Shown: one piece after another, positions 1,087 to 47,800 of the stretch
Position numbering within the stretch: position 1 is the first letter of the stretch
How the letters are laid out: every line of letters starts with the position of its first letter
Assembly: GCA_963775805.1 (NCBI GenBank)
Contig: CAVZKG010000005.1
Coordinates: forward strand, 337,234-401,233
DNA length: 64,000 nt
Direction of reading: 5' to 3'
Source of the DNA: an uncultured Verrucomicrobiae bacterium
GTDB taxonomy: Bacteria; Verrucomicrobiota; Verrucomicrobiia; Chthoniobacterales; JAFAMB01
Translations under genes and position numbers: made by a program
The notes under the pieces: generated by a model
What the model was told of the DNA's origin: nothing
The model's input: the letters and a program-made list of their open reading frames with translations, nothing else
Database searches by the model: none

Positions 1087-1980
1087 ATGAAGATTTTGGC
1101 TTATTCGAAGTGGGATGTATTACCAGTCCTCTGCGGGTTTTTGCATTTTGCGTACGTCCTCACGTTATTCGCGCTTTTCCCGATTGCTCCCTGGTGGGTA
1201 CTCGGTGTGATGGGGATTGTCTATTCGATCAGCATCTCCTGGAACATCAACGGGATTTCGCACAACTTCATACACAATCCCTATTTCACGTGGCACCCGT
1301 TGAATCGTTTGTTCGCGTTGATTGAGTCCCTCTCCCTGGGATTCTCGCAAACCTTCTATAAGTATGTGCATCACCGGCATCACATGGGGAACAGCGACAA
1401 GCCAGACGAGCAAGGTGAAACGGTGGACTGGCTATCGATTTACCGCCACGGACACGACGGTGAAGCGGAAAACGTCTGGAGTTATATCTTCCTGAGCTAT
1501 ATGCGCGATGATCCGAAGGCAATTTTTCTCGAGATCAAGCGCAAGAGCAAATTCGAGGCGTACTGGGGGGTATTCGAGATCGTTGCTTTCCTTAGTTTCT
1601 TTGTTTTGATGGGGGTATTGAACTGGAAGTTCATCATTTACTTCTTGCCATTCTACTATCTAGGCCATTGCCTCTCTTATCTGAACGGCTATTTCCTGCA
1701 TTTCGGAGGAAACCCGGATAAACCGATTGCCTGGGGTGTGAGCTCTTATGAAAAGATCTACAATGCGATCTGGTTTAATAACGGATACCACGCCGAACAT
1801 CATTTCCGTCCAAAATTGCACTGGACCAAGATGAAGAATCTCCACGAGCAGATCGCGGAACAGCAATTGAAAGAGGGCACCCGCGTGATCAAGCCTCCGC
1901 ACGCATTGGCGTTCCTGGATCCGTCGCTTCCGGCGAAGAGCACACCGCTAGTTCCTGCCCAAGAGGCGCACAGGTCCTGA
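1087..1980 (+). CDS. Membrane di-iron fatty-acid desaturase/hydroxylase family protein
   Basis: Three His boxes (HNFIHN, HHRHH, HAEHH) with hydrophobic segments between them. The ATG at 1087 lies two codons inside the TTG-initiated ORF at 1081. Confidence 0.8.
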   Translation: MKILAYSKWDVLPVLCGFLHFAYVLTLFALFPIAPWWVLGVMGIVYSISISWNINGISHNFIHNPYFTWHPLNRLFALIESLSLGFSQTFYKYVHHRHHMGNSDKPDEQGETVDWLSIYRHGHDGEAENVWSYIFLSYMRDDPKAIFLEIKRKSKFEAYWGVFEIVAFLSFFVLMGVLNWKFIIYFLPFYYLGHCLSYLNGYFLHFGGNPDKPIAWGVSSYEKIYNAIWFNNGYHAEHHFRPKLHWTKMKNLHEQIAEQQLKEGTRVIKPPHALAFLDPSLPAKSTPLVPAQEAHRS

Positions 1981-2070
1981 CTGCCGATTCCTAGACCCAC
2001 ACTTCTCACGTCTCCGTGCGAAATGCGCACCGAGTGCCGACATTAGTCGGGGCAAGCCCCAAAGACCCGC

Positions 2071-2439
2071 TTAAAATACCGCAACCAGACTAATCCCGAT
2101 TGCGATCAGGAACGAGGCCAACCAGGCGCGGGCCGTGATTCTTTCTGAAAGAAAAAGCCCGGATGCAAGCGCCACGAGGAGCGGGCTGACTCCTTCGAAC
2201 GCGAACAAGCGGTTCAATTCGAAAATGCGCATCAAGTGCAGCCACAAAAAAAACCATGTGGCCATCGAAGTAATCCCGATCGCATACCACGCCGCGCGCA
2301 CTGGTCCGCTTGCAATCGGTTTGTGGTCGGAGCCGGACGCGTGTTTCAGACAGACTTCGCCGGCAGCCAACGCGAGCTGGGAAAAAACCAGCATTACGAG
2401 ACTGGATAAAGTCATCATTGTGACGGGCAGACTATTCAT
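2071..2439 (-). CDS. Half-size EamA/DMT-type (4-TM) transporter subunit
   Basis: 122 aa, almost entirely hydrophobic helices. Overlaps the upstream paralogous 157-aa subunit by 8 nt, an ArnE/ArnF-like paired arrangement. Confidence 0.6.
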   Translation of the reverse strand: MNSLPVTMMTLSSLVMLVFSQLALAAGEVCLKHASGSDHKPIASGPVRAAWYAIGITSMATWFFLWLHLMRIFELNRLFAFEGVSPLLVALASGLFLSERITARAWLASFLIAIGISLVAVF

Positions 2440-2905
2440 GCGAAAACGCCAACATCACGATTCCTCCCAGAATAAAGAGCATTCCCACGAGTCGCCCGAT
2501 CGGAATTATCTCGTGTAGGACGAGCAAACAGGCCAAAGGAACCAGCAGATGCACCGAGGACGACAAGCCATAGGCCAGGTGAAGCGGCAGTCGCGGAAGC
2601 GCCGCGAGCCATAAGGATAGACTGCCGATGTACGCGACGATGCCCAAAATCACCCATCCGTTGAAGAGGGTCGAGAGGAATGAGATCGACCCCGGGAAAA
2701 TCACGGTGGGCGGCTGGGTTGCACCAATTTTGAGCAGCAACTCCGCAAACGTGGACAAAATCGCGTTGAGAAGGACCAAACCGATCGGAAACCATTGCAC
2801 TGCAATAAAGCGTCGCCCCTGTAGCCCGGTCGGGGTACGCTCGAGAATGTTAGTTGCAGATTTGCCGCTCTTCGCCATTATCCGGTTTGCATTTTGCTGA
2901 CGCAC
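2432..2905 (-). CDS. Half-size EamA/DMT-type transporter subunit
   Basis: 157 aa with 4 predicted TM helices (FAELLLKIGA..., WVILGIVAYIGSLSLWLAAL...). Translationally coupled to 2071..2439. Alternative start at 2878. Confidence 0.6.
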   Translation of the reverse strand: MRQQNANRIMAKSGKSATNILERTPTGLQGRRFIAVQWFPIGLVLLNAILSTFAELLLKIGATQPPTVIFPGSISFLSTLFNGWVILGIVAYIGSLSLWLAALPRLPLHLAYGLSSSVHLLVPLACLLVLHEIIPIGRLVGMLFILGGIVMLAFSHE

Positions 2906-2962
2906 CGCTTCAGGCCGCAGTGCTTGATTACTGTCAGCGGACAGCTAAATGATTTTTACGAC

Positions 2963-4207
2963 ATGCAGCCTTCAGGTTCTTCAATAACAGGGACAGATAC
3001 CCAAACCAAGCCTGGCCTCTCGGCGTCAGACGCTTCTTCTGTTCATATCTGTATTGAAACCACGTTTGGGTCAGCCGTCGTAGCCGATTCTGTTCCTAGT
3101 GAAGATTACAACGTTTGGGTTGCCGGATTGGACCAGTCTCCTCTGGACCACCGGTATTATGAGATTGTACACGAATCGCTAAAGGATCAATTTGCGCATT
3201 ATTATCTATTGCTGAAAGACGATACTGGGAGGACCCGGGCTATACAACCGTTCCTGATCGTAAGTCAAGATCTCGCAACAGGGATGCCTCCAGTGGTTCG
3301 TGGATTGCTGGCCCGGATCCGAAGCCATTTTCCGGGATTTCTCAAATTGCGGATGCTCATGGTCGGGTCTTCCGCAGGGGAAGGGGATATCGTTTTGGAC
3401 CTGAGAAGCCGGGATATTGCATGGACTATCGACGCGTTACAGAAGAGCCTGGTGGCATCCGCACGCCGTCTAAAGGCAATGCTGATCGTATTTAAGGACT
3501 ATCCGAAATCGTATCGTGAATCGCTCGATCGATTGCGACAATTCGGTTATACGCGTGTGCCCAGCATGCCGGCAACAAGACTGGAGCTTGATTTTAACGA
3601 TTTCGACGATTTTCTGAAATCACGCATCAGCTACACGATGCGGAAAAACTTACGGCGGAAATTTCGCAAAACGGAGGGCGAACATCAAACTGAGTTCGAG
3701 GTCCTCAACGACATAACCCCCTTCGTCGACGAGATTCACCCGCTCTATCGGCAGACTTTGGGCCGATCGGAGCTCAAGTTCGAAGAATTGACCAAATCAT
3801 ACTGGTGCAATCTCGGGCGTCGAATGAACGACCGCGCACGGTTTTTTATTTGGCGTCAAGGGGGCAAGATCGTGGCATTTGCGTCGACCATTGTGCACAA
3901 GAACGTACTCCGGGATAACTATATCGGACTCGATTACTCAGTTGCGCTCGAGTATCACCTTTATTTTGTCACGCTGAGAGACACGATTGTATGGGCTCTC
4001 AAAAACGGTATTAAGACCTATCACAGTGCACCGTTGAACTACGATCCAAAGTATCATTTTCGAATGGACCTGGAACCACTTGATCTCTATGTGCGTGCGC
4101 CAAACAGGTTTTTGAATCCTCTCTTTAAGCGAATCCTGCCATTGCTGGAGCCGACTCGGTACGACCCGGTTGTTCGAAAGTTCTCGAATGCAAATGAACT
4201 ATGGTAA
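2963..4207 (+). CDS. GNAT-fold acyltransferase, FemAB/BioF2-like (Acetyltransf_6-type)
   Basis: About 414 aa from the ATG at 2963; the ORF-track start at 2894 is TTG and would overlap the divergent gene. The C-terminal half (FIWRQGGKIVAFASTIVHKNVLRDNYIGLDY...YHLYFVTLRDTIVWALKNGIKTYH) resembles the FemAB-like GNAT core. Confidence 0.5.
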   Translation: MQPSGSSITGTDTQTKPGLSASDASSVHICIETTFGSAVVADSVPSEDYNVWVAGLDQSPLDHRYYEIVHESLKDQFAHYYLLLKDDTGRTRAIQPFLIVSQDLATGMPPVVRGLLARIRSHFPGFLKLRMLMVGSSAGEGDIVLDLRSRDIAWTIDALQKSLVASARRLKAMLIVFKDYPKSYRESLDRLRQFGYTRVPSMPATRLELDFNDFDDFLKSRISYTMRKNLRRKFRKTEGEHQTEFEVLNDITPFVDEIHPLYRQTLGRSELKFEELTKSYWCNLGRRMNDRARFFIWRQGGKIVAFASTIVHKNVLRDNYIGLDYSVALEYHLYFVTLRDTIVWALKNGIKTYHSAPLNYDPKYHFRMDLEPLDLYVRAPNRFLNPLFKRILPLLEPTRYDPVVRKFSNANELW

Positions 4208-5090
4208 GGGATCCAATCCGCAGACGAAGACGTCAGAAACCATCCGGCTTCGACTGGATGACGCCTGGGATTTCAAGTTCTCGCCTTCATTCAAAGCCCC
4301 CTTGGTTGTGGATGCATCATCCTTTGGCCCCTCGTTGCGGTTTATAACAAAGAAACGTTCGATTGAATCGTTTTTTGGCGAGTTCCGGGACAAATTTTGT
4401 CCATTTATCATGTCTGGGTCAGGGGACTTTCATCATCTGACTCCTCTGTTTGTCCGGCAAATCAAGGAGAACTTCGCGATCGTATCGTTTGACAATCATC
4501 CTGACTGGGATGTGCGTCCACCCTACTGGTCGTGCGGCGCGTGGGTGAATCGAGCCCTTGAAAATCCGCTGATCCAAAAAGTCGCAGTTTGGGGTTGTGG
4601 CAGCTTCGAGTGCACTTTCCCATGGCGCCTGCTCGGAAATCGACTGGCTTGCCGCTCAGATCGCCTATGGATTGCTCCATGGCAAAGCGAAGGGAAGGAT
4701 TACCCATCGTGGTTGCATCCGGTCTTATCGGGGAATTGGCAGACTCATTTCACAAGATTTGTCGAATCAATCCGAAGTCTCCCTGTTTACGTCACTGTGG
4801 ACCTTGATTGCCTCAGCGAAGAGGAATCAGTCACAAATTGGGAGAATGGGCGGTATGCGGTCTCGGATATTGTATGGGCGTTGACGCTTCTTAGGCAAAA
4901 TGTGCGAATTATCGGCGGGGATCTCTGCGGAGCGCTATCGACATCCCGGTACGGATCGCGTTTTCAATCTGTTGCAGGACGTTTTGATCATCCCCGTCCG
5001 CGCGCTGTATCGGAAGAGGCGCGTCGCACAATTAACATGCGAGCGCTGGAGTCGATCTGGCCCTGTCTAATTGGGGAGTCGCTGTCGTAA
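4188..5090 (+). CDS. Arginase/ureohydrolase-fold family protein
   Basis: Motifs in the canonical order of the binuclear-metal arginase fold: SGDFHHLT (GGDHS-like), FDNHPDWD (DAHxD-like), VTVDLDCLS (SxDxD-like), GGDLCG. The start overlaps the upstream stop. Confidence 0.55.
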   Translation: MQMNYGKGSNPQTKTSETIRLRLDDAWDFKFSPSFKAPLVVDASSFGPSLRFITKKRSIESFFGEFRDKFCPFIMSGSGDFHHLTPLFVRQIKENFAIVSFDNHPDWDVRPPYWSCGAWVNRALENPLIQKVAVWGCGSFECTFPWRLLGNRLACRSDRLWIAPWQSEGKDYPSWLHPVLSGNWQTHFTRFVESIRSLPVYVTVDLDCLSEEESVTNWENGRYAVSDIVWALTLLRQNVRIIGGDLCGALSTSRYGSRFQSVAGRFDHPRPRAVSEEARRTINMRALESIWPCLIGESLS

Positions 5091-5326
5091 TGCCGGAATC
5101 GCTTCGACGATGTTTCGATAACGCATTCTGAAGCCGTTTTCAGAGGCCAAAGCCGTCAAGAAGGGAGACCTGAATTTTATTTTGGAATAACAGGTCCGGG
5201 CCTGCATCTACCTATATGCAAACGGGCGCACAGTTAAGAGACCAGACGTTTGATCGTCTTCTTAAAACAGCTGTGCTGTTGCGAAGGTGACCAGACACCA
5301 ACTATAAAAACTAGAAAGAGTTAAAG

Positions 5327-5599
5327 ATGATTAGACCATCCAAAGCAGTGATTGCAGGCGCGGCGGTCGCCGGCCTTATGACAGGTTCCTTTGCGGTTCG
5401 TGCTTATGCCGCGAGTACTACCACCTCCCACGCTGGTGTAGCGCTGCAGACCCTGGCAGACACTGAGAAAGGCAAACATGGGTGTAAAGGGCAGAACGAA
5501 TGCAAAGGTCAAGGCGGTTGCAAGACAAGCGATGCCGGTTGCAAAGGCAAAAACTCTTGCAAAGGCAAAGGAGGCTGCGCGACCAATAAGGGTGCCTAG
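5327..5599 (+). CDS. bufA: Bufferin-type RiPP precursor: Sec signal peptide plus 6-Cys Lys/Gly-rich core
   Basis: 90 aa. N-terminal signal (MIRPSKAVIAGAAVAGLMTGSFAVRAYA|AS). Core is GCKGQNECKGQGGCKTSDAGCKGKNSCKGKGGC, with six Cys spaced C-x5-C-x5-C-x6-C-x5-C-x5-C. Lies directly upstream of DUF692/DUF2063/DoxX genes. Confidence 0.8.
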   Translation: MIRPSKAVIAGAAVAGLMTGSFAVRAYAASTTTSHAGVALQTLADTEKGKHGCKGQNECKGQGGCKTSDAGCKGKNSCKGKGGCATNKGA

Positions 5600-5747
5600 T
5601 CCGATAGCCCCCTTGAAGTCTGTTTGGCCGGCTTTCTCGCTGGCCATCGACAATCAACTCGGGGAGGGTGTTCTCGCGCGGCGATATGTGCCGGCCCCAT
5701 TCCTCCTCGAAAGCCGAAAGCCAGTTTGTTAGAAAGTTATTAGGAAT

Positions 5748-6599
5748 ATGCCCGCTAACGCTTTTAACGGATACACGGAATATGGCATAGGCATTGGTTT
5801 GCGAGTGCCGCATTATCGCCACATTCTCGCGAAGAAGCCTGTTGTTGATTGGTTCGAGATCATCTCCGAGAATTTCATGGTCGATGGTGGTCGACCGCTC
5901 GAAGTGCTCGACACGATCCTCGAACAGTATCGAGTGGTCCAGCACGGGGTAGCAATCTACTTCGGTTCAGCTGACAAGTTTGACCGCGAGCATCTCAAGC
6001 GGCTCAAACGACTCGTTAAATACACGAAGACCCCGTGGCTTTCTGACCATCTTTGCTGGGGCAGTGTCGACGGCCGTTACACGCATGACCTGTTGCCAAT
6101 GCCGTACACCTTTTCAGTGGCGCACCACACCGCGCAGAAAATCAAAGAGGCGCGTGATTTTCTTGAAGTCCCCATCTGCGTCGAGAACGTGAGCAGCTAC
6201 GCCGAATATCATGCTTCGGAAATGACCGAATGGGAGTTTCTCAGTGAGGTGGTTGAACAGGCGGATTGCGGCATTCTACTGGACGTGAATAACATTTACG
6301 TTTCGTCGCAAAATCACAGCTTCGATCCGTACGATTATCTAAATAACATTCCCCATCAACGGGTGGGCCAGATCCATATTGCTGGTCATTCCAAATTCGA
6401 AAAGTATATACTCGATACGCATGATCACCCGGTGCTTGATCCGGTCTGGAAGATGTATGCCCATGCGATGAAACAGGTAGGAAATACTGCCACGCTGCTC
6501 GAGTGGGATGATCGCATCCCGTCGTTTGACGAGGTTCATAATGAAGCGCTCAAAGCCAATCAATTCCGGGACAAGCAGCTCATTGCGGCCGCCAAATAA
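5748..6599 (+). CDS. bufB: DUF692 multinuclear non-heme iron oxidative (MNIO) enzyme, MbnB/BufB-like
   Basis: 283 aa with typical DUF692 blocks: GIGLRVPHY, DWFEIISENF, VVQHGV, PWLSDHLCW, ENVSSY, LLDVNNIYV, IHIAGH, DTHDHPV, TLLEWD. Confidence 0.9.
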   Translation: MPANAFNGYTEYGIGIGLRVPHYRHILAKKPVVDWFEIISENFMVDGGRPLEVLDTILEQYRVVQHGVAIYFGSADKFDREHLKRLKRLVKYTKTPWLSDHLCWGSVDGRYTHDLLPMPYTFSVAHHTAQKIKEARDFLEVPICVENVSSYAEYHASEMTEWEFLSEVVEQADCGILLDVNNIYVSSQNHSFDPYDYLNNIPHQRVGQIHIAGHSKFEKYILDTHDHPVLDPVWKMYAHAMKQVGNTATLLEWDDRIPSFDEVHNEALKANQFRDKQLIAAAK

Positions 6600-7503
6600 A
6601 ATCAGTTCACACGCTGAGCTGAAAGAGTTGCAGCGCGTGATGGTTCAAGCGCTGTTTCGTCCCCTTACACCTCAATGGGGAATGCAGAAGCGGTGGACCG
6701 ACGGCACTCCAATGATATCGGTCGCTTCGGAGTTTATTAAGCCGAATGACCGGCTGACTTCGTTCGAGCGTCTTGAAATCTACAACCGTCAATACTGGTA
6801 TCGAGTTCTTGACTGTCTCTACGACGACTACCCGGGGCTGCGCGCAATCGTCGGGGAGCGGAAGTTTATGAAGCTCGCGAAAGCGTATCTGACACGTCAT
6901 CCGTCGGAATCGTACACGCTTCGCAATCTCGGAAATCGGCTCGAACAATTTCTGAGGGACGAGCCTGACTGGTGTGCTCCCAGAGAAGAACTGGCCATCG
7001 ACATGGTTCGATTTGAGTGGGCGCAGGTGGTCGCGTTTGACGGACCTTCTAAGGAGCCGCTCACCCCGGATGATATCCTCGATACCCCTCCATCCAAGTT
7101 AAAGCTTGCCCTTCAACCGTATATTTCGCTGTTGGAATTGAATTTTGCGGTGGACGATTTTCTGATCGCCGTTAAGAAACAGGAAACAGACGGACTTCGT
7201 GGCGAAGCGAGTAACGCGAAGAATGCTGCACCAAAAGCGAGCGGGCGCCGGAAACGGGTTCGGTTCCCGAAGCGGGAGAATATTTATCTCGCCGTTCACC
7301 GGCACGACAACGTCCTCTACTACAAACGCCTCGAACAAGAGGAATATGCCATCTTGAAGTCACTCGACCAGGGAGTGACGGTGGAAGACGCGTGCCTCGA
7401 AGCGGTCACCTTAAGTAAAAGAACAAACGTCGACTGGCCTGCGGAAATCAAGCAATGGTTTGATACCTGGTCCACGCTTGGCTGGTTCTGTCACCGATCA
7501 TGA
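6541..7503 (+). CDS. bufC: DUF2063 partner protein of the MNIO enzyme (MbnC/BufC-like)
   Basis: The N-terminal ELKELQRVMVQALF block is typical of DUF2063. Follows and overlaps the DUF692 gene. Start uncertain (ATG 6541 or 6508). Confidence 0.75.
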   Translation: MKRSKPINSGTSSSLRPPNKISSHAELKELQRVMVQALFRPLTPQWGMQKRWTDGTPMISVASEFIKPNDRLTSFERLEIYNRQYWYRVLDCLYDDYPGLRAIVGERKFMKLAKAYLTRHPSESYTLRNLGNRLEQFLRDEPDWCAPREELAIDMVRFEWAQVVAFDGPSKEPLTPDDILDTPPSKLKLALQPYISLLELNFAVDDFLIAVKKQETDGLRGEASNAKNAAPKASGRRKRVRFPKRENIYLAVHRHDNVLYYKRLEQEEYAILKSLDQGVTVEDACLEAVTLSKRTNVDWPAEIKQWFDTWSTLGWFCHRS

Positions 7504-8018
7504 GTGGAATACTAAATCTGGTCCGCCGCGCTTACAGGCTCCTCGTAGCGTTCGCCAATCTGCTGCGATCCCCGTTTTTACTGGCGCTGCGCGTTTATTT
7601 CTTCTGGCAACTCTTTCAGACCGGCGAGGGCAAACTCTCGAACATTCAAAGGGTGATAGGGTTCTTCAAAAGTCTCGGAATTCCGGCTCCTCATATCAAT
7701 GCGTACTTTGTTAGTTCTCTGGAATGCTTCGGCGGTTTGCTTTTGATCGTCGGTCTAGCCTCACGTCCGATTGCGCTGATGGTCACCATTTCAATGTGTG
7801 TAGCGTATGTCAGTGCCGATCTGGAGGCCGTCGCCAGCATATTCAGCGATCCGGACAAGTTCGTAAAAGCGGATCCGTTCCCATTCCTGATGGCGGCTTT
7901 GATTGTCCTGGTTTTCGGGCCCGGATTGATCTCGATCGACGCGTTTCTACAGCGCGTGTTTGGAGAGAAACGAGAATCAGAGCTCGATTACTCGACGAAC
8001 GCGTTTTCTAAGAAATAG
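7500..8018 (+). CDS. bufD: DoxX family membrane protein
   Basis: 172 aa with 4 TM helices and the DoxX-like segment SSLECFGGLLLIVGLASRPIALMV. An ATGA start/stop overlap with the DUF2063 gene suggests translational coupling. Confidence 0.8.
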   Translation: MSGILNLVRRAYRLLVAFANLLRSPFLLALRVYFFWQLFQTGEGKLSNIQRVIGFFKSLGIPAPHINAYFVSSLECFGGLLLIVGLASRPIALMVTISMCVAYVSADLEAVASIFSDPDKFVKADPFPFLMAALIVLVFGPGLISIDAFLQRVFGEKRESELDYSTNAFSKK

Positions 8019-8032
8019 CCGGGAGATTCGCA

Positions 8033-9787
8033 GTGTATCGCTCTTTATGGGTTCTATTTGCGGCGGCACTGCTCTCGTTTGAAAGTGCCACTGCGGCAAG
8101 TGACGCGATTGTCTGGCAGCCCTGGTCCAATTCGATCTTTGACCAGGCCAAACGAGAGGGGCGTTTCGTTCTACTCGACCTCGGGACAAGCTGGTGTCAC
8201 TGGTGCCATGTCATGGAGGATGTCACCTACCGGGATCCGGCTGTGACTCGTTTAATCGGGCAACGCTATCTCGCTGTCCGGGTCGACGCCGATTCGCGCC
8301 CTGATTTATCGAATCGATACGAGGACTACGGCTGGCCGGCGACCGTCGTTTTTAATAACGACGGCAGCGAGATCGTAAAACGGCGCGGTTACCTTCCTCC
8401 CGAGCAAATGGCCTCGATGTTGCAGGCTATCATCGACGATCCAACGCCCGGTCCTTCTGTCGTCGCAGAAACGCCTCTCGTTCCAAGCGGTGCGGATACT
8501 ATCAATCCGGGGAAGAGGAACGAATTACGCCAGACTTTGGTTGAAAGTTATGACCATATCAACCTGGGCTGGGGTAGCGGTCAAAAATTCCTCGATTGGG
8601 ATACGATCGAGTATTGCATCACCCAGACCTTGCGTGGTGATCGGGCGCTGGAACGAATGGCGCGTGAAACGCTCGGTGCGCAACTTAATCTGCTCGATCC
8701 AGCATGGGGTGGAGTCTACCAGTATTCGACCGACGGAGATTGGGTCCATCCGCACTTTGAAAAGATTGTGCAGATGCAGGCTGAAAACCTTCGAATCTAC
8801 GCACTTGCATACGCGTTATGGCATGATGAAACCTATTTGGAAGCAGCAAACCGAATTCGTGATTATCTGCGGGAGTTTCTAACCTCTCCCGATGGTGCAT
8901 TTTACACAAGCCAGGATGCAGACCTCGTCGACGGCGAGCATGCGGCGGGTTACTTCAAGCTCAGCGATAGCCAACGACGAACGCAGGGCATCCCGCGGGT
9001 CGACACTCATGTTTACGCTCGCGAAAACGGTTGGGTGATTAATGCCCTGACGGTGCTCTACTCGGTTTCCGCTCAGAAGGCAGCGCTTGCGGACGCGATC
9101 CGATCGGCCCTTTGGATTTGCGATCATCGAGCGCTCCCCGGTGGCGGGTTCAGGCACGATGAAACAGACGATTCCGGCCCTTATCTCGGCGACACGCTAT
9201 CGATGGGACGAGCCTTTCTGGCGTTATACAGCTGCACAGGGGATCGTTCCTGGCTCCAAAAGGCGATGGGCTCGGTCGACTACATTTCGAAGAACTTTTC
9301 AACCGATGTTGGATTTGTCACGAGTCCGAACATTGGCGGGATCAAATCGAAGCCGCAGCTGGATGAAAACGTGAATCTGGCCAGACTGGCTTGTCTATTA
9401 TGGCACTACACCGGGGAGACCGGTTACAGGACCATCGCCGAAAGAGCAATGCGCTACGTCAACAACCCAGCCGCAATCGAACATCGAGGGTACCAGGTGG
9501 CTGGCGTACTTCTGGCCGCCGACGAACTGGAGTTGTCGCCGCCACATATCACCGTCGTCGGGCATAAAGATGATCCGAAGGCCGAGGAACTCTTCCGAGC
9601 GGCTATTCGCCAACCGATCACATTCAAACGCATCGAATGGCTTGATGACCGTGAAGGGGCGCTCCCAAACCCAGACGTTGCATATCCGACCTTGCCAAAG
9701 GCCGCCGCTTTTTTCTGCACGGACCAAGCCTGTTCTGCCCCTGTTTTTGTCGTCGCGGCATTGGTCGCCGAGATTTCGAAGCGTTGA
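8033..9787 (+). CDS. Secreted thioredoxin-domain protein, DUF255/YyaL-like (thioredoxin fold plus alpha/alpha-toroid)
   Basis: GTG start. Signal peptide MYRSLWVLFAAALLSFESATAASD. DUF255 hallmark LLDLGTSWCHWCHVMEDVTY. The long C-terminal part resembles six-hairpin glycosidase-like/N-acylglucosamine 2-epimerase-like folds. Confidence 0.8.
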   Translation: MYRSLWVLFAAALLSFESATAASDAIVWQPWSNSIFDQAKREGRFVLLDLGTSWCHWCHVMEDVTYRDPAVTRLIGQRYLAVRVDADSRPDLSNRYEDYGWPATVVFNNDGSEIVKRRGYLPPEQMASMLQAIIDDPTPGPSVVAETPLVPSGADTINPGKRNELRQTLVESYDHINLGWGSGQKFLDWDTIEYCITQTLRGDRALERMARETLGAQLNLLDPAWGGVYQYSTDGDWVHPHFEKIVQMQAENLRIYALAYALWHDETYLEAANRIRDYLREFLTSPDGAFYTSQDADLVDGEHAAGYFKLSDSQRRTQGIPRVDTHVYARENGWVINALTVLYSVSAQKAALADAIRSALWICDHRALPGGGFRHDETDDSGPYLGDTLSMGRAFLALYSCTGDRSWLQKAMGSVDYISKNFSTDVGFVTSPNIGGIKSKPQLDENVNLARLACLLWHYTGETGYRTIAERAMRYVNNPAAIEHRGYQVAGVLLAADELELSPPHITVVGHKDDPKAEELFRAAIRQPITFKRIEWLDDREGALPNPDVAYPTLPKAAAFFCTDQACSAPVFVVAALVAEISKR

Positions 9788-31866: not shown

Positions 31867-34800
31867 ATGATTAAATTGAAAGCCGGTGTCCGAGCCAGTG
31901 ATTTGAAGGCGCGTACCCGCGGAACTCGCGCGCGTAGCAAGAAGAAGAGTGGGCTGAAATTCGAACGGTTTTTCAGCGCAGAAGGTCGATCTCCGTTTGA
32001 CGAGATCGAGTGGGAACGTCGGGTCGCCGAGATCACCGATGACAGCGGAAAGGTGATCTTTCGCCAGGAGGATGTGGAGGTTCCAAAGTCCTGGAGTGCA
32101 TTGGCTACAAAGATTGCCGTATCGAAGTATTTCTATGGAGACATCGCCAATGGGACTGACCCGTATGCCGGCGGCCGGGAGAACTCAGTTCGACAGCTGG
32201 CGCATCGTGTCACGCGGACGATTTCCGATTGGGGAATGAAGGATGGGTATTTCGCTGATAGCGCTTCTGCAGAAGCATTCTACGGAGACCTGACTTGGCT
32301 CTGCCTTAATCAGCATGGTGCATTCAACAGTCCGGTCTGGTTTAACGTCGGGCTCTACCAGCAGTATGGAGTTGGCGAGGGGGCCGGAAAAGGGAACTAC
32401 TTTTACAATCGGGCCACGGGCCAAGCCGAACGAGCGCCGACCCAATACGAGTATCCTCAGGCATCAGCGTGCTTTATCCAGTCAGTCGATGACACGATGG
32501 AAGACATCATGCGCTTGGCGACCAGCGAGGCGATGCTGTTCAAATACGGAAGTGGAACCGGATCGGATCTTTCGACTTTGCGCAGTACCCGGGAAAAGCT
32601 GAGTGGTGGAGGACGCCCAAGCGGGCCTCTCTCGTTTCTGCGCGTGTACGACCAGGTTGCCAACGTCGTCAAGAGCGGCGGTAAAACTCGCCGGGCAGCC
32701 AAAATGAACACTTTAAAGGATTGGCATCCCGACATCGAAGAGTTCATTGACGCAAAATCCAAGGAGGAAAAGAAAGCATGGGCGCTCATCGAACAGGGTT
32801 ACGACGGGAGCTACAATGGCGAAGCGTACGGCTCGATTATGTACCAGAACGAAAATCTCTCGGTTCGGGTGAGCGACGACTTCATGCAGGCCGCAATTGA
32901 CGGCAAAGAGTGGTGGACCCGCATGGTTGTGAGCGGCAAACCGTGTGACAAGAAGGATGCGCGCACCCTGCTGCGAAAAATTGCCGAAGGGACTTACATT
33001 TGCGGAGACCCGGGGATGCAGTTCGATTCGACCATTCACAAGTGGCATACGTGCAAAGGAACAGCGCGCCAAAATTCCACAAATCCCTGCTCAGAGTACC
33101 TTTTCCTCGACAATACGGCGTGCAATCTCGCTTCGCTGAACTTGATGAAATTCAAGAAAGCCGACGGCGGGTTCGACGTGGAAAGATTTAAAGCAGCCGT
33201 TCGAGTATTCATAACGGCGCAGGAAATACTGGTCGACAACGCCAGCTATCCAACCAAGGAAATCGCTGAGAACAGTCATATCTTTCGAACATTGGGGCTC
33301 GGTTTCGCCAATCTCGGCGCGCTCATGATGAGCTATGGCTACGGATACGATTCGAATGAAGCCAGAGCATTAGCCGGTTCAATCACCGCTATCATGACAG
33401 GCGAAGCCTATCTCCAAAGTGCCCGTACAGCCGGAGCGATGGGACCGTTCCAGGGATATCATGATTCGAGGGCGACCGGATTCTCCCGGACCTTGGCCCC
33501 GGACAACGTAGACCCTATGCAGGAGGTTATCCGGTTGCATCGGCAATACTGCGATCAAATCGAAGACTCAATCGAATTCGGTTCGCTCAAGGAACATGCA
33601 AAAGAAGTATGGAGCAACGCTTTCCGCATCGGTTCGGCAGATGGGTTCCGGAACGCTCAAGTGACAGTGCTAGCGCCGACGGGAACGATCGGGTTCCTGA
33701 TGGATTGCGACTCGACCGGTATTGAACCCGATATTGCTCTTGTGAAGTACAAGCTACTGGCTGGTGGCGGAATGCTGAAAATTGTGAACCAGACGGTTCG
33801 CCCTGCACTCGAAAAACTCGGTTATCCCGCGGATCAGATTGAGCAGATCCTTGCTCATATCAACGAACACGACACGATCGAGGATGTCGCAGTTCCTGAG
33901 AGCCAGATTGTGATCAAAAGCGGACTCAATCCGGAGCATCTGCCGATCTTTGATTGCGCGTTCAAACCCTACAAAGGCGAACGAAGTCTTCATTATCTCG
34001 GGCACCTGCGCATGATGGCTGCATGCCAGCCGTTTTTAAGTGGCGCGATTTCAAAGACGGTCAATCTCCCGAGCCACGCGACGGTCGACGAGATCATGAG
34101 CACCTATATCGAGGGTTGGCGCCTCGGACTGAAAGCCGTCGCAATTTATCGTGACGGATCGAAACGATCAGCTCCGCTCAACACAAAAAAGACCAAAGAC
34201 ATGGGTTCCGGCGAAGTCGCCGAAGCCGACGCGGGGCCTGAGGTGTTTCAGCGGCGGATCGTGGAATTGGAAAAGCAGATCGAGACGTTGCGGGCTAAAA
34301 TCGAGCTGCCCTCTCGCCGCCGGATGCCGGATACCCGGTTTTCGCTGACGCACAAGTTCGAGATCGCAGGCCACGAAGGGTATATCACAGTCGGTTTGTA
34401 CGAGAACGGGCAGCCGGGCGAACTTTTCGTCCAGATGGCGAAGGAAGGAAGCACAATCGGTGGACTCATGGACACGGTTGCAACCTTGAGTTCGTTGGCT
34501 CTTCAGTACGGAGTGCCCCTTGAAAGTCTCGTGAAAAAATTTGCTTATCAGCGTTTTGAACCGAGCGGCTTTACGAAAAATCCGGACATTCGGAACGCCA
34601 CCAGTATTACCGATTATATTTTCCGGTGGTTGGGATGCCAATTTATCAAAGGTTACAAGGAGGCGACGTCGCCGAGCCGTACTCAGCCCGACCTTCCGAT
34701 GAAGGAGATCGCTGATATCGACAAAAAGGCGATTAATCGCCCGGTCGCGGAACTGCCAAGAACAGCGGAAAAAGAAGTAATTGACGTGGTAACTAATCGG

Positions 34801-34986
34801 TCTAACTCAGAAGGAACGTCTGCCAACGGCAACGGTCTCTCGCAATTGCATGCCGACCGCGTCCAGGCCGCTTTGGAAAATATGTACATGGGTATGAGCT
34901 GCTCCCATTGCGGAAGCACGAAAGTGATTCGCGCCGGGGCATGCGGTGTCTGCACAGAGTGCGGAACTTCGCAGGGATGCAGCTAG
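31867..34986 (+). CDS. nrdJ: Adenosylcobalamin-dependent (class II) ribonucleotide reductase
   Basis: 1039 aa. SACFIQSV, TNPCSEYLFLDNTACNLASLNL (active-site Cys loop), AIYRDGSK. C-terminal Cys4 module CSHCGS...CGVCTECG. Confidence 0.88.
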   Translation: MIKLKAGVRASDLKARTRGTRARSKKKSGLKFERFFSAEGRSPFDEIEWERRVAEITDDSGKVIFRQEDVEVPKSWSALATKIAVSKYFYGDIANGTDPYAGGRENSVRQLAHRVTRTISDWGMKDGYFADSASAEAFYGDLTWLCLNQHGAFNSPVWFNVGLYQQYGVGEGAGKGNYFYNRATGQAERAPTQYEYPQASACFIQSVDDTMEDIMRLATSEAMLFKYGSGTGSDLSTLRSTREKLSGGGRPSGPLSFLRVYDQVANVVKSGGKTRRAAKMNTLKDWHPDIEEFIDAKSKEEKKAWALIEQGYDGSYNGEAYGSIMYQNENLSVRVSDDFMQAAIDGKEWWTRMVVSGKPCDKKDARTLLRKIAEGTYICGDPGMQFDSTIHKWHTCKGTARQNSTNPCSEYLFLDNTACNLASLNLMKFKKADGGFDVERFKAAVRVFITAQEILVDNASYPTKEIAENSHIFRTLGLGFANLGALMMSYGYGYDSNEARALAGSITAIMTGEAYLQSARTAGAMGPFQGYHDSRATGFSRTLAPDNVDPMQEVIRLHRQYCDQIEDSIEFGSLKEHAKEVWSNAFRIGSADGFRNAQVTVLAPTGTIGFLMDCDSTGIEPDIALVKYKLLAGGGMLKIVNQTVRPALEKLGYPADQIEQILAHINEHDTIEDVAVPESQIVIKSGLNPEHLPIFDCAFKPYKGERSLHYLGHLRMMAACQPFLSGAISKTVNLPSHATVDEIMSTYIEGWRLGLKAVAIYRDGSKRSAPLNTKKTKDMGSGEVAEADAGPEVFQRRIVELEKQIETLRAKIELPSRRRMPDTRFSLTHKFEIAGHEGYITVGLYENGQPGELFVQMAKEGSTIGGLMDTVATLSSLALQYGVPLESLVKKFAYQRFEPSGFTKNPDIRNATSITDYIFRWLGCQFIKGYKEATSPSRTQPDLPMKEIADIDKKAINRPVAELPRTAEKEVIDVVTNRSNSEGTSANGNGLSQLHADRVQAALENMYMGMSCSHCGSTKVIRAGACGVCTECGTSQGCS

Positions 34987-41123: not shown

Positions 41124-41141
41124 ACCACTACATTTAGTGGT
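41124..41141. promoter_or_regulatory. NrdR-box-like palindrome ACCACTA-CATT-TAGTGGT
   Basis: Perfect 7-bp arms. Resembles the NrdR box consensus (acaCtAtATaTaGtgt). Lies just 5' of the riboswitch in front of nrdB. A degenerate partner (ACCGCTATTAGTGG) lies about 31 bp upstream at 41093-41106. Confidence 0.4.
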
Positions 41142-41144
41142 ATG

Positions 41145-41315
41145 TCCGTGAAAAAGTGCCTCCCTCTACGGTCGGAGGAGAATAGGGAAACGGGTGGGAA
41201 TCCCGTGCGGTAGCGCCGCTGTAACGAGAGACGAAAGTCCCAATGAAGTCACTGCGCGAAAGCGTGGTAAGGCGGGGCCGGTAGGATGACCTCGGAGTCA
41301 GAAGACCTGCTTTTT
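41145..41315 (+). promoter_or_regulatory. Cobalamin riboswitch (5' leader of nrdB-nrdA)
   Basis: Conserved core AAUAGGGAAACGGGUGGGAAUCCCGUGCGGUAGCGCCGCUGUAAC, then GUCACUG...GGUAAGGCGGGG, and the B12 box GAGUCAGAAGACCUGC at 41294-41310. Confidence 0.85.
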
Positions 41316-41464
41316 CATGCTCATCAAGTCCCCGGCCTGGTATCCGGGGCGACTCTCTCGCCAAAGAGAGGATGGGATGCCGAATGCTGCCTTTGCCGCC
41401 TTCTGGATCCCGGCTCGGGGATGGGAAGGCATTTTGCTTTTCGCTCCGATGATCCAATCGCGCC

Positions 41465-42652: not shown

Positions 42653-45472
42653 ATGAATACAGAATCACCTGAGTTGGTGGCAAACCTCGGTTTGGCTTCG
42701 GCCTCGGAGTTTCCTCGCGTAATCCGGCGCGACCTTCCGGGCGCGAAATCGATGAAACCGCGGGTAGTCCCGTGGATCGGGCGAAAGATCGAGACAGCGG
42801 TTGATGCAGCCTGCGTTGCGGTTGGACATCCGCCGGTTGGCAAGGAGTTGCAGGCGGAAGTGGAATTTCGCGTGAAGAAAGAGTCCCCTCTTTTTATCCA
42901 TATCGAGGAGTTGCAGGATCTTGTTGAGAGCCTTTTGGTTGAGCTCAACTACGGGCTGGTCGCTCTGGCCTACGCCAAGTATCGCGCAAGACGCGCGGTC
43001 TTGCGCGAAATCGACGCTCAATCCGCGGCCAATGCCGCCGAACAACTTGAGTTAGCAGCTCCAAGCTGCGTCGGCGATCTTCGACGTCGGATTTCGTTTG
43101 CGCGGATCGGTTTGAACCTGACTCTTTCGGACTCAGAATTAATCGCACGGCTGATGCGCAGCGTTTCCCTCTCGCTCACACCGGAGGAGCAGCGCGAGAC
43201 GGTTATTCTGAATGCGAAAAATCTGCTGGATGTCGACGCCGATGGCCGATTTTTTGCGGGACGTATTCTTCTCACATACATCTACGAAGAGACGTTGCCC
43301 TGGAAAACAAGCGACGGAATTGACCGGCTCAAAGATGCGCATCGGAGGGCCTTTCTGGACTACATCCCGAATGGCATTCAACAAGGACGCCTTGATTCGC
43401 GACTCGCCGAGTTTCGATTGAATGAAATCGCCGATGCAATCGATCCATACGCCGATCTGCAGTACGATTTCATTGGGATTCAAAATCTGTATGACCGGTA
43501 CCTGATCCATCTAAAAGATCCAAGCCGGCACGACGGGCGGCGCCGTGTGGAATCGCCTCAGATTTTCTGGATGCGTGTTTCGATGGGTTTAGCTTTGCTG
43601 GAGCGAGAACGCGAAACGCGCGCGAAGGAGTTCTACGGGATCTATCGGGCCAAACGAGCCTGTTCCTCCACGCCGACGCTCTTTAACTCTGGAACGCGGC
43701 GTCCGCAGTTGTCGAGTTGCTACCTGCTTCATTGCGGGGATTCAATCGAGGAGATTGCCGAGACCTGGGGCCGATTCTCTGTGCTCTCAAAATGGGCGGG
43801 AGGACTTGGTTGCTCTTGGAGCGCGGTGCGTGGCACTGGCGCGCATATCCAGGGTACGAATGGGGAGTCTTCTGGCGTAATCCCATTCTTGAAAGTGGCG
43901 AACGACATCTGCGTCGCCGTGAACCAGGGAGGCAAACGCCCAGGTGCTCTGTGCAGTTACATCGAGCTTTGGCATGCCGACGTTGAAGATTTTCTCGATC
44001 TCCGCAAAGAGACCGGAGATGACCGACGCCGCACGCACAATATGAACACGGCGCTTTGGGTTCCGGATCTATTCATGAAACGCCTCCGCGACATCTCCGA
44101 AAGCCGCCTCACCAAAGACGCGACCTGGACCCTGTTTCGAGGAGACGAAACCCGGGATCTGCCCGAAATCTATGGGAGCAAGTTCGAAGAACGCTACCTC
44201 CAGTATGAAGCGTTGGCCGAGTCCGGTGCTATCTATGGCCGCAAGATCCGGGTGCTGGCGCTCTGGAAGCGCATGATCGAAGCGTTATTTGAGACGGGCC
44301 ATCCCTGGATCACTTTCAAGGATCCATCGAATGTCCGATCGCCTCAGGACCACGTAGGCGTCGTTCATAGTTCGAACCTCTGCACCGAAATCACACTCAA
44401 TACGAGCATGGAAGAGGTGGCGGTTTGTAACCTCGCATCGATCAACATTCCAAATCATTTGCATGAAGATGGCTCGATTGATCATGCGAGTCTCGAGGCT
44501 ACGATTCGCGTCGTCATGCGGATGCTCGATAACGTGATTGATATCAACTACTACCCGTCTAACGCCGCAGAGAGAGCGAATCTGCGTCATCGACCCGTTG
44601 GGCTTGGTGTCATGGGTCTCCAGGATGCGCTTTACATTAAGCGGATCGCATTTGATTCCCATGAAGCCGTTGATTTCGTTGATCAGATCACCGAAGCAAT
44701 CGCTTTTTACGCATACGCGGCCTCGGCAGACCTCGCGGTTGAGCGTGGCAGGTATTCGACGTTTGAAGGTTCGAAATGGGATCGCGGGCTTCTGCCGCTT
44801 GATACCTTGGCACTTCTCGAACAGGAACGCGGCATGCCGGTGCTGGTTGATCGCAAGAGCCGCCTGGATTGGGATAGTCTACGCGCTAAGATCCGTCAGC
44901 AGGGGATGCGGAACTCGAACTGCCTGGCGATCGCGCCGACTGCGACAATCTCCAACATCATGGGTTGCACACCCTGCATAGAACCGACCTACAAACACAT
45001 CCACACCAAATCGAATTTGTCCGGTGAGTTTGTCCGTACAAACGGCTATCTGGTGAAGGAACTCCTCGATCTCGGTTTATGGGATGAGGAAATGCTGTCC
45101 GATCTTAAATATTTTGACGGGTCGATCCAGGGAATTGAGCGGGTGCCGGAAGAAATGAAACGTCTTTACAAGACAGCATTTGAGGTTGAACCAACTTGGT
45201 TGCTCCAGTGTGCCGCAGTTCGTCAAAAATGGCTCGATCAGTCGCAGTCGGTGAACTTATTTCTTGCAGAGAATGACGCTCGGCTGGCCTCATTCATGTA
45301 TCGCGAGGCCTGGGAGAGGGGACTCAAGACCACCTACTATTTGCGGACGATCAACAAATCGGGCATTGATTCCAGCAATCGCGAGCGAAGAAAATCGGAG
45401 CCGGCCATTACGCCGGTCCTTTGTTCGATTGAGGCTGCAATGAACGGCACGATATGCGAGTCTTGCCAATGA
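42653..45472 (+). CDS. nrdA: Ribonucleotide reductase large subunit, class I
   Basis: 939 aa. N-terminal ATP-cone-like segment (VIRRD...KIETAV). SSCYLL, SSNLCTEITL...VCNLASINI, TTYYLR. C-terminal Cys pair CESC. Confidence 0.9.
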   Translation: MNTESPELVANLGLASASEFPRVIRRDLPGAKSMKPRVVPWIGRKIETAVDAACVAVGHPPVGKELQAEVEFRVKKESPLFIHIEELQDLVESLLVELNYGLVALAYAKYRARRAVLREIDAQSAANAAEQLELAAPSCVGDLRRRISFARIGLNLTLSDSELIARLMRSVSLSLTPEEQRETVILNAKNLLDVDADGRFFAGRILLTYIYEETLPWKTSDGIDRLKDAHRRAFLDYIPNGIQQGRLDSRLAEFRLNEIADAIDPYADLQYDFIGIQNLYDRYLIHLKDPSRHDGRRRVESPQIFWMRVSMGLALLERERETRAKEFYGIYRAKRACSSTPTLFNSGTRRPQLSSCYLLHCGDSIEEIAETWGRFSVLSKWAGGLGCSWSAVRGTGAHIQGTNGESSGVIPFLKVANDICVAVNQGGKRPGALCSYIELWHADVEDFLDLRKETGDDRRRTHNMNTALWVPDLFMKRLRDISESRLTKDATWTLFRGDETRDLPEIYGSKFEERYLQYEALAESGAIYGRKIRVLALWKRMIEALFETGHPWITFKDPSNVRSPQDHVGVVHSSNLCTEITLNTSMEEVAVCNLASINIPNHLHEDGSIDHASLEATIRVVMRMLDNVIDINYYPSNAAERANLRHRPVGLGVMGLQDALYIKRIAFDSHEAVDFVDQITEAIAFYAYAASADLAVERGRYSTFEGSKWDRGLLPLDTLALLEQERGMPVLVDRKSRLDWDSLRAKIRQQGMRNSNCLAIAPTATISNIMGCTPCIEPTYKHIHTKSNLSGEFVRTNGYLVKELLDLGLWDEEMLSDLKYFDGSIQGIERVPEEMKRLYKTAFEVEPTWLLQCAAVRQKWLDQSQSVNLFLAENDARLASFMYREAWERGLKTTYYLRTINKSGIDSSNRERRKSEPAITPVLCSIEAAMNGTICESCQ

Positions 45473-47442: not shown

Positions 47443-47594
47443 ATATCCTCTCGCACCGGATTCCCCCGTTGCAAGGCGACCGGAGAAGAGGAATAAAATG
47501 GACCCTGGAAACTTTCGCTGCTGTTGACGTATTCCGGAGACCCGGTAATCTGAGTTCGAGTTCTTTGATTTTGAGCGAGGATTATATCCTTCGC

Positions 47595-47800
47595 GTTTTG
47601 ATCGCAGAACAGAGGGAATGCCGTGAGAATCAGCAACAGTCCCGCTGCGGTAACGAGCTACAGACCTCCACGCACCGTTTCTCCGTCTGAGTGACGACGC
47701 GGCAAAGCCAATCGGGAAACCGGTGAAGGCGGGGGCGAGGATGCGTCACACGGGTGGCCAAGAAGCTTGGAGTCCGAACACCTCGTCTGACGATTTTACA
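47595..47800 (+). promoter_or_regulatory. Cobalamin riboswitch (5' leader of metE)
   Basis: AGAGGGAAUGCCGUGAGAAUCAGCAACAGUCCCGCUGCGGUAACG core, GCCAAUCGGGAAACCGGUGAAGGCGGG, and a divergent B12 box GGAGUCCGAACACCUCGUC (47769-47787). The RBS AAAGGAGA lies 6 nt before the ATG at 47834. Confidence 0.7.

Follow-up and report, generated by a model that had tools for sequence, protein, structure and literature searches.

The gene at positions 5327..5599 (+ strand) of the window, the whole 64,000-nucleotide stretch of DNA analysed here, heads a canonical bufA–bufB (MNIO)–bufC (DUF2063)–doxX operon. Its product is very probably the BufA of a Buf2-type bufferin, that is, of the "Cys-Lys" class of captophorins, and a maturation and copper-binding pathway can be proposed for it by analogy. 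Judged from alignments, the spacing of its six cysteines is that which characterises a very large, already described family, Buf2 (BUF_6/12Cys, BufA2), and not a new type of array; the precursor is a previously uncharacterised member with nothing new in kind. Six-Cys ORFs ahead of DUF692/DUF2063 genes were noted by Waschulin et al. 2021 (PMC8692599), and the family was named BUF_6/12Cys by Leprevost et al. 2024 (PMC11626156). According to a 2025 survey, 90% of Buf2 precursors have six conserved cysteines and the rest have twelve (PMC12452194). Gadgil et al. 2026 (PMC13097082) sorted the precursors of MNIO–DUF2063 clusters into DUF2282, Lys-Cys (EGKCG) and Cys-Lys groups, and named the whole class captophorins. 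Bufferins have only lately been recognised as a copper-defence system, and a very widespread one; their Buf2 (Cys-Lys) branch is chemically known by mass shifts only.

The precursor ORF encodes 90 amino acids followed by a stop codon, and its translation agrees with the sequence quoted in an earlier, sequence-only reading of this DNA. The product reads MIRPSKAVIAGAAVAGLMTGSFAVRAYA up to the predicted cleavage site and continues as ASTTTSHAGVALQTLADTEKGKHG-CKGQNE-CKGQGG-CKTSDAG-CKGKNS-CKGKGG-CATNKGA. Its cysteines are residues 53, 59, 65, 72, 78 and 84, separated by gaps of 5-5-6-5-5 residues, and 10 lysines lie within the last 44 residues; the earlier reading had claimed both the spacing and the lysine count, and both are present in the ORF. 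It had also described six CK(G/T) units. Five are found (CKG, CKG, CKT, CKG and CKG), but the sixth is C-A-T, leaving lysine after five of the six cysteines, and the units are not equivalent. The residues preceding Cys I–VI are G, E, G, G, S and G, none of them lysine. The predicted 62-residue mature peptide contains 10 lysines and 4 acidic residues (D/E), giving a net charge of about +6. Two minus-strand ORFs that overlap the gene (5321-5653 and 5418-5945) were dismissed as mechanical because the plus-strand product is deeply conserved.

Residues 1–28 (5327..5410, + strand) constitute a predicted Sec signal peptide, as judged by hydropathy and the -3/-1 rule. The n-region is basic (R3, K6) and precedes a hydrophobic stretch spanning approximately residues 7–24, with a Kyte–Doolittle 11-mer peak of 2.26. 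We infer that cleavage occurs after A26-Y27-A28, at -3/-1, and this predicted layout agrees with the mature peptide of about 62 residues proposed earlier. Both AGLLxG and the segment around the putative cleavage site, (A/S)YA followed by A(S), are conserved among close homologues. Only for the Caulobacter bufferins have experiments established export by Sec and cleavage where it was predicted (PMC11626156).

The mature peptide would begin with a Cys-free N-terminal part (5411..5482, + strand; residues 29-52), which ends in a conserved K-H-x immediately before Cys I. The cysteines themselves are distributed over two 13-residue motifs: CKGQNECKGQGGC (5483..5521, + strand; Cys I–III, residues 53-65) and CKGKNSCKGKGGC (5540..5578, + strand; Cys IV–VI, residues 72-84), the latter followed by ATNKGA. 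Between them lies the six-residue linker KTSDAG (5522..5539, + strand), for which the family consensus is K(T/S)xDxG. A repeat search found one 47-nt repeat pair in the gene, at an offset of 57 nt and 70% identity, and the two 57-nt halves of the Cys region are identical at 35/57 bases. This offset, which corresponds to 19 residues, shows the Cys array to be a duplicated three-Cys block; in sequence terms it is two copies of CKGxNxCKGxGGC joined by a 6-residue linker, and not six equal units. The DNA had previously been described as repetitive. It is so only modestly: this holds for the 47-nt pair and for TGCAAAGG, which is found three times, but does not extend to a tandem array, none being detected over the Cys region by Tandem Repeats Finder. 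No second copy of the precursor was found elsewhere in the window. We propose that the 5-5-6-5-5 spacing arose by an ancient duplication of the 13-residue module CKGxNxCKGxGGC.

A search of 5.8 billion proteins (E<=1e-3) returned 4818 homologues of the precursor, and when the representatives of clusters at 50% identity were searched exhaustively, 1141 clusters matched. At least one complete C-x5-C-x5-C-x6-C-x5-C-x5-C hexad is present in 143 of the 150 best representatives; 65 of these 150 contain the 5-5-6-5-5 hexad alone, and some forty others carry two hexads, with 12 or 13 cysteines. The exact spacing also recurs in 75/80 precursors from the best 80 genome loci, which represent different species. 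By these alignments, the spacing far exceeds chance and is kept in homologues of several phyla. The sequence-only reading had named a lack of Cys periodicity among homologues as the result that would overturn its interpretation; the periodicity is conserved. The closest matches in the databases, at 97-99% identity, are proteins from metagenome bins of Chthoniobacterales. Where close homologues are named at all, every name is "hypothetical protein", and the cluster-member names for ten distant homologues are likewise all "hypothetical" or absent. A tblastn search of the precursor against plasmids gave no match, a PDB sequence search gave only a signal-peptide-like chance match, and no paper was retrieved when the full-text literature was searched for the core motifs. 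AlphaFold2 models were of low confidence for both the full precursor (57 sequences, pLDDT 54.8) and the mature peptide (105 sequences, pLDDT 55.7), and at these values they give no confirmation of a small Buf1/Buf2-type domain (two strands, a short helix and an outer disulfide).

Position-specific conservation was derived from 192 hexads, whose consensus is H-x-C-K-G-x-N-x-C-K-G-x-G-G-C-K-(T/S)-x-D-x-G-C-(K/A)-G-K-N-x-C-K-G-K-G-G-C-(A/K)-(T/V). Lysine follows Cys I–VI in 83, 91, 78, 66, 93 and 16% of the hexads, respectively. Cys VI is thus the sole position lacking a conserved lysine; it is followed by alanine in 62% of cases. Units 3 and 6 are variable; the Asn found at +4 in units 1 and 4 (99-100%) and the Gly-Gly pair that occupies +4/+5 in units 2 and 5 (92-100%) are conserved as strictly as the lysines or more so. 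This suggests that a folded or metal-bound product imposes constraints of its own, in addition to those of enzyme recognition. A histidine occupies position -2 of Cys I in 83% of the hexads, and the corresponding H51 is >=90% conserved in an alignment of close homologues. Homologues with 8, 9 or 15 cysteines also exist (for example P0044, P0094, P0242, P0123 and P0175). Three-Cys blocks have been gained or lost in them, which suggests that the three-Cys triad is the evolutionary unit of these precursors.

The only NCBIfam model that matches the precursor is NF050166, "BufA2 family periplasmic bufferin-type metallophore" (E 3.6e-9). The match is collinear over 62 residues, and its score of 36.7 bits lies below the curated equivalog cutoff of 60. 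Under NCBI's rule, the precursor is therefore not nameable as BufA2; the sub-cutoff score marks it as a diverged verrucomicrobial member. All 57 aligned representatives match the same model, with a best E-value of 1e-13, and several hexad-bearing distant homologues pass its cutoff (P0182 with 73.2, P0128 with 73.0, P0242 with 66.7 and P0157 with 60.5 bits). Pfam returned no match to the precursor even at E<=10, PF10048 included; some of its homologues touch DUF7640. The numbering reported for Caulobacter Buf2, Cys24/Cys50 in a 61-residue core, misfits a 5-5-6-5-5 pattern, which puts Cys VI at 55. We nevertheless regard the spacing as probably shared with Caulobacter BufA2, since the cutoff-passing homologues all show this pattern and no net length change is needed to align the BufA2 profile with the precursor.

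The genes that follow the precursor are those of a buf operon. The first, bufB (5748..6599, + strand), encodes an MNIO (DUF692) maturase that matches PF05114 (1.8e-105) and scores 343.8 bits against NF050167 MNIO_BufB, above the cutoff of 310. It is followed by bufC (6508..7503, + strand), which encodes the DUF2063 partner (PME type 1; PF09836 7.9e-16) and scores 38 bits with the HvfC model, under that model's cutoff. The listed bufC start overlaps bufB by 92 nt, and the true start is uncertain. The earlier assignment of the peptide as the precursor for an adjacent MNIO/partner pair is supported by these two genes, which follow it directly. Next comes doxX (7500..8018, + strand), which encodes a bufD-like membrane protein (PF07681 1.6e-17) and whose first 4 nt overlap the end of bufC; in the Caulobacter Buf1 system, doxX is dispensable for modification (PMC11626156). 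A further gene, 15 nt after doxX (8033..9787, + strand), encodes a secreted protein of the DUF255/thioredoxin fold that contains a C-H-W-C motif (PF03190 1.4e-25) and may be an accessory gene of the operon. The genes upstream of the precursor (arginase-like, GNAT-like and desaturase) are syntenic only in its closest relatives and hence are not part of the cluster. The RNA fold of the bufA–bufB intergenic region is not unusually stable (z = -1.27).

The maturase carries a residue that corresponds to the Cys-Lys pattern of its presumed substrate. At residues 251-256, BufB reads L-E-W-D-D-R (E252-W-D254-D255). The codons of Asp254 and Asp255 occupy positions 6507-6512 (+ strand), and the roles of catalytic base and of Cys-Lys selectivity, respectively, are taken from PMC13097082. 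That study reports that MNIOs of the Cys-Lys class have an aspartate directly after the catalytic-base aspartate, that Lys-Cys enzymes have a phenylalanine there (FonB Phe250), and that the aspartate contacts the substrate lysine in a model (Gadgil et al. 2026, PMC13097082). In the Histophilus somni enzyme 3BWW, which belongs to a Lys-Cys type cluster, the aligned position reads ERDF. The five Cys-Lys dyads among the six cysteines of the precursor are paired with an MNIO, encoded next to it, that has Asp where FonB has Phe250, and EWDD is found in 67/69 MNIOs adjoining related precursors. Iterative recognition of a C-K unit by the enzyme, as put forward in the sequence-only reading, is supported by this correspondence and matches what has already been published (PMC13097082). 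One of the two exceptions to EWDD, at locus L016, reads EWDA, and the precursor at this locus has serine instead of lysine after Cys III and IV; it is a lone instance, though one that points the way expected. The lysine alone does not select the targets, since it follows Cys I in most hexads, yet Cys I is unmodified in Caulobacter.

Across the best 80 genome loci, bufA is followed by bufB in 75, by bufC in 67 and by doxX in 56. The loci come from Chthoniobacterales, Opitutaceae, Verrucomicrobiaceae, Acidobacteriaceae, Acidoferrales and Eremiobacterota; Caulobacter BufA2 is not among them. This distribution bears on whether the peptide is modified at all. An unmodified, secreted Cys-rich peptide, metallothionein-like or disulfide-knotted, whose adjacency to an MNIO gene has no functional meaning, would be compatible with the five loci in which bufB was undetected within the examined stretch, and with the sizeable share of Buf2 precursor genes that do not lie beside an MNIO gene (PMC12452194). 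We nevertheless consider it extremely improbable: bufB follows bufA in species from several phyla, the enzyme residue matches the Cys-Lys dyad of the substrate, and very few genomes have Buf2 precursors without MNIO and partner genes (PMC12452194). We give hardly any credence to an antimicrobial role, in which the peptide would be a cationic RiPP or bacteriocin and its Lys-rich core would target other cells instead of metal. The positive net charge, the small size and predicted secretion of the peptide, and the RiPP-type operon would all suit such a function, but the operon contains no immunity, protease or dedicated export gene, the lysine positions are tied to the cysteines and to the enzyme aspartate, and the characterised relatives serve copper homeostasis (PMC11626156, PMC13097082). 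In the same set of loci, a DUF255 gene adjoins the buf operon in 11/80 cases; these belong to Verrucomicrobiota and Acidobacteriota and differ in their arrangement.

For a Buf2-type bufferin, the observed gene, conserved Cys pattern, operon and enzyme class with its Asp can be combined with the literature to suggest how the chemistry, the choice of modified cysteines, the export and the copper binding would proceed. In Caulobacter vibrioides, Buf2 is copper-induced and exported, its signal peptide is removed, and the product absorbs near 305 nm; its four central cysteines show a mass shift of -4 Da each, amounting to -16 Da, plus a disulfide, and Cys I and Cys VI are unmodified and probably disulfide-bonded (PMC11626156). 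Bufferins support growth under Cu stress (PMC11626156), and the chemistry and function of the family are also treated in PMC12452194 and 10.64898/2025.12.15.693703. By analogy, the 90-residue precursor would be made with its Sec signal peptide, and BufB, an iron enzyme, would act with BufC in the cytoplasm to oxidise core cysteines to 5-thiooxazoles in a four-electron reaction (-4 Da per Cys). Asp255 of BufB, beside the catalytic base Asp254, would pair with the lysine after each target cysteine. The modified peptide would then be exported via Sec and cleaved after AYA. The resulting cationic mini-protein of about 62 residues would bind periplasmic copper through its thiooxazoles and thereby buffer copper stress.

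Following the Caulobacter pattern, Cys59, Cys65, Cys72 and Cys78 would be heterocyclised, and Cys53 and Cys84 would remain thiols and form one disulfide. This assignment is an extrapolation from a single homologue, Caulobacter Buf2, where the pattern is known by mass shifts and UV only. The lack of a conserved lysine after Cys VI fits an outer Cys pair that stays unmodified. The same pattern revises the sequence-only proposal of a poly-heterocycle rather than a disulfide-containing peptide: heterocycles are indeed expected, but the outer cysteines of Caulobacter Buf2 probably form a disulfide (PMC11626156). A variant of the same system in which all six cysteines become thiooxazoles, producing a six-site copper chelator with no disulfide, seems unlikely to us. 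It draws on the EGKCG class, where every cysteine is modified (seven in fontiphorin, PMC13097082; six in oxazolin, 10.64898/2026.06.05.730506), on Cys I of the precursor being followed by Lys-Gly like the central cysteines, and on Buf1, which tolerates alanine after a modified cysteine (Cys31-Ala32; 10.64898/2025.12.15.693703); homologues with 8, 9 or 15 cysteines would moreover fit poorly with a strict outer-pair disulfide. Against it stand the sole Buf2 studied, with its unmodified Cys I and VI, -16 Da and one disulfide (PMC11626156), and the exceptional position after Cys VI, where alanine predominates over lysine.

Upstream of the gene, 143 nt before the bufA ATG, lies a promoter-like motif, GGAATAAC-N14-ATCTA (5184..5210, + strand), which proves conserved when upstream regions are aligned and has no other match in the window. 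GGAATAA occurs within 300 nt upstream of bufA in 30/78 related loci (background, 0.011 per 300 nt) and is followed 14-16 nt on by (C/A)TC(T/A)nA. The motif may represent a -35/-10 pair of the ECF-sigma type. A scan for sigma-70 promoters and terminators found nothing near the precursor gene, and a domain scan of ten ORFs located downstream of 17.8 kb, two of them large and eight small, revealed no sigma factor. An ECF-like motif would parallel the SigF control of Caulobacter buf operons; Buf2 clusters reportedly lack sigma-factor genes.

It is conceivable, if quite unlikely, that the Buf2 systems of soil Verrucomicrobiota and Acidobacteriota form a distinct variant, characterised by the 13-residue three-Cys module as the unit of evolution and function in place of the six-Cys domain, a dedicated ECF-type promoter (GGAATAA-N14-16-CTCnnA) and a secreted DUF255 partner acting in the periplasm. 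If so, the thioredoxin-like DUF255 protein would set the redox state of the thiooxazole or thiol sulfurs, or of the bound copper. The findings on the precursor do not overturn the current understanding of bufferins. They allow a protein that automated pipelines call "hypothetical protein" to be annotated correctly, and they provide handles for Buf2 in abundant soil phyla: the duplicated CKGxNxCKGxGGC module, the His at -2, EWDD, the promoter motif and the thioredoxin-like neighbour.

The precursor was also compared with other MNIO-dependent systems. Methanobactin biosynthesis (MbnA/MbnB/MbnC) likewise uses an MNIO to oxidise cysteines to copper-binding heterocycles, but its precursor has a leader peptide and not a signal peptide, its product contains oxazolone-thioamide groups, and its partner protein is MbnC and not DUF2063; assignment to this system was rejected, as the MNIO in the window scores 41.5 bits against the MbnB model TIGR04159, whose cutoff is 325. 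The CxxxxC precursor class (C-x4-C; PMC12452194) was rejected because all gaps in the precursor are 5 or 6 residues long. Bufferin 1 (DUF2282, PF10048) shares the operon logic and the enzyme class, and chelates periplasmic copper with two central thiooxazoles and an outer disulfide. Unlike the precursor studied here, it has four cysteines with neither regular spacing nor a Cys-Lys repeat, and membership in Buf1/DUF2282 was rejected owing to the lack of a PF10048 match.

The Lys-Cys captophorins (the EGKCG class of oxazolin, fontiphorin, gonophorin and bulbicupramide; HvfA/FonA) are also made as signal-peptide precursors with repeated short Cys motifs. Closely related MNIO and DUF2063 pairs convert them to 5-thiooxazoles, they bind copper, and their operons often include doxX. 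In these peptides, however, lysine precedes the cysteine (E-G-K-C-G) in 5-mer and 17-residue repeats, whereas in the precursor lysine follows the cysteine in steps of 6 or 7 residues. The enzymes differ in parallel, with Phe after the catalytic Asp in the EGKCG class (3BWW ERDF) and Asp in the window. FonBC failed to process motifs with lysine after cysteine (PMC13097082). Membership in the EGKCG/oxazolin class was rejected because no cysteine of the precursor is preceded by lysine.

The closest likeness is to Caulobacter vibrioides BufA2 (CCNA_03001) and the Buf2 family. Both have a Sec-type signal peptide (predicted here) and Cys-Lys dyads, and in both the mature part is about 61-62 residues long, the first of its six cysteines lying at approximately residue 24-25. 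The gene order precursor–MNIO–DUF2063 is the same, and so is the BufB-class MNIO with an Asp after the catalytic Asp. The differences are the score relative to the curated BufA2 cutoff, the host, which is a member of the Verrucomicrobiota (Chthoniobacterales) here and of the Pseudomonadota in the case of Caulobacter Buf2, and the end of the operon, where doxX and then the DUF255 thioredoxin-like gene follow in the window, while the Caulobacter buf2 operon lacks doxX.

Two conserved features of the precursor lie outside its cysteine units. His51 of the bufA product (codon at 5477–5479 of the window, forward strand) is conserved in both homologue alignments, A1 and A2. At least 90% of single-hexad homologues have a conserved histidine two residues before the first cysteine, mostly preceded by lysine. 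Counted over all hexads the figure is 83%, and in 12-Cys proteins the histidine recurs ahead of each hexad. It may be an additional metal ligand or a recognition element. The second feature is the motif AAxAGLLxG in the signal peptide (residues 12–21; window 5360–5390, forward strand), which is conserved in homologues; its Gly16 and Gly20 are at least 90% conserved across phyla. Such conservation of a sequence motif is unusual for signal peptides. For Buf1, modification proceeds without the signal peptide, which is dispensable.

The EWDD motif of the linked MNIO maturase ends in an aspartate that published work ties to Cys-Lys recognition. The MNIO of one Verrucomicrobiae MAG locus, L016 (bufB at 6362–7174 of the locus), is the only linked MNIO that carries EWDA in place of EWDD. 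The neighboring precursor (bufA at 6001–6273) has serine, not lysine, after Cys III and Cys IV. This pairing is a single case, and it is consistent with enzyme–substrate co-variation.

Upstream of bufA, a promoter-like motif is located at 5184–5210 of the window (forward strand). Of 78 related loci, 30 carry the conserved pattern GGAATAA-N14–16-(C/A)TC(T/A)nA 60–155 nt 5′ of bufA, the background rate of the GGAATAA motif being 0.011 per 300 nt. A motif of this type occurs only once in the window. It looks like an ECF-sigma promoter. No sigma factor gene was found among the ten window ORFs scanned, all of which lie downstream of 17.8 kb.

At the other end of the operon, the gene at 8033–9787 (forward strand) starts 15 nt past doxX; its product is a secreted protein of DUF255/thioredoxin fold that carries a C-H-W-C motif. 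Of 80 loci, 11 have a homologue adjoining the buf operon, 3′ of it in Verrucomicrobiota and 5′ in two Acidobacteriota loci (L038 and L065). The protein may serve as a periplasmic redox accessory; its gene is absent from the core bufferin gene lists in the bufferin literature searched. Within the operon, the longest bufC ORF overlaps the 3′ end of bufB by 92 nt (6508–6599). Since the DUF2063 match in its product begins only at residue 42, the true bufC start is probably downstream of the one listed. In the Verrucomicrobia MAG locus L020 (buf region at 1948–6246 of the locus), the matched bufA lies 3′ of a full bufB-bufC-doxX-DUF255 set, which suggests a second precursor copy behind the accessory genes.

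Elsewhere, the window holds two cobalamin riboswitches, both on the forward strand, and two ribonucleotide reductases, none related to the buf finding. The first riboswitch (41137–41328) precedes an ORF of 390 aa and a reductase of class I type with an ATP-cone (42653–45472), the second is at 47581–47799, and a B12-dependent class II reductase occupies 31867–34986.

Some family members (P0162, P0114 and P0121) match Pfam DUF7640 (PF24646); the window precursor gave no match to it. P0162 scores 30.1 bits (above the cutoff of 28.1); its two hexads are incomplete, with five Cys each, and DUF305-like helical segments separate them. The number of C-x5-C-x5-C triads is odd in 21 of the best 150 of 1141 cluster representatives, some of these being truncated or degenerate. 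Eight homologues (P0044, P0054, P0073, P0094, P0110, P0123, P0175 and P0242) have 8, 9 or 15 cysteines, through gain or loss of three-Cys blocks of 13 residues. The Buf2-type family has been described as having ‘6 or 12 Cys’, but the 8-, 9- and 15-Cys homologues do not fit this description.
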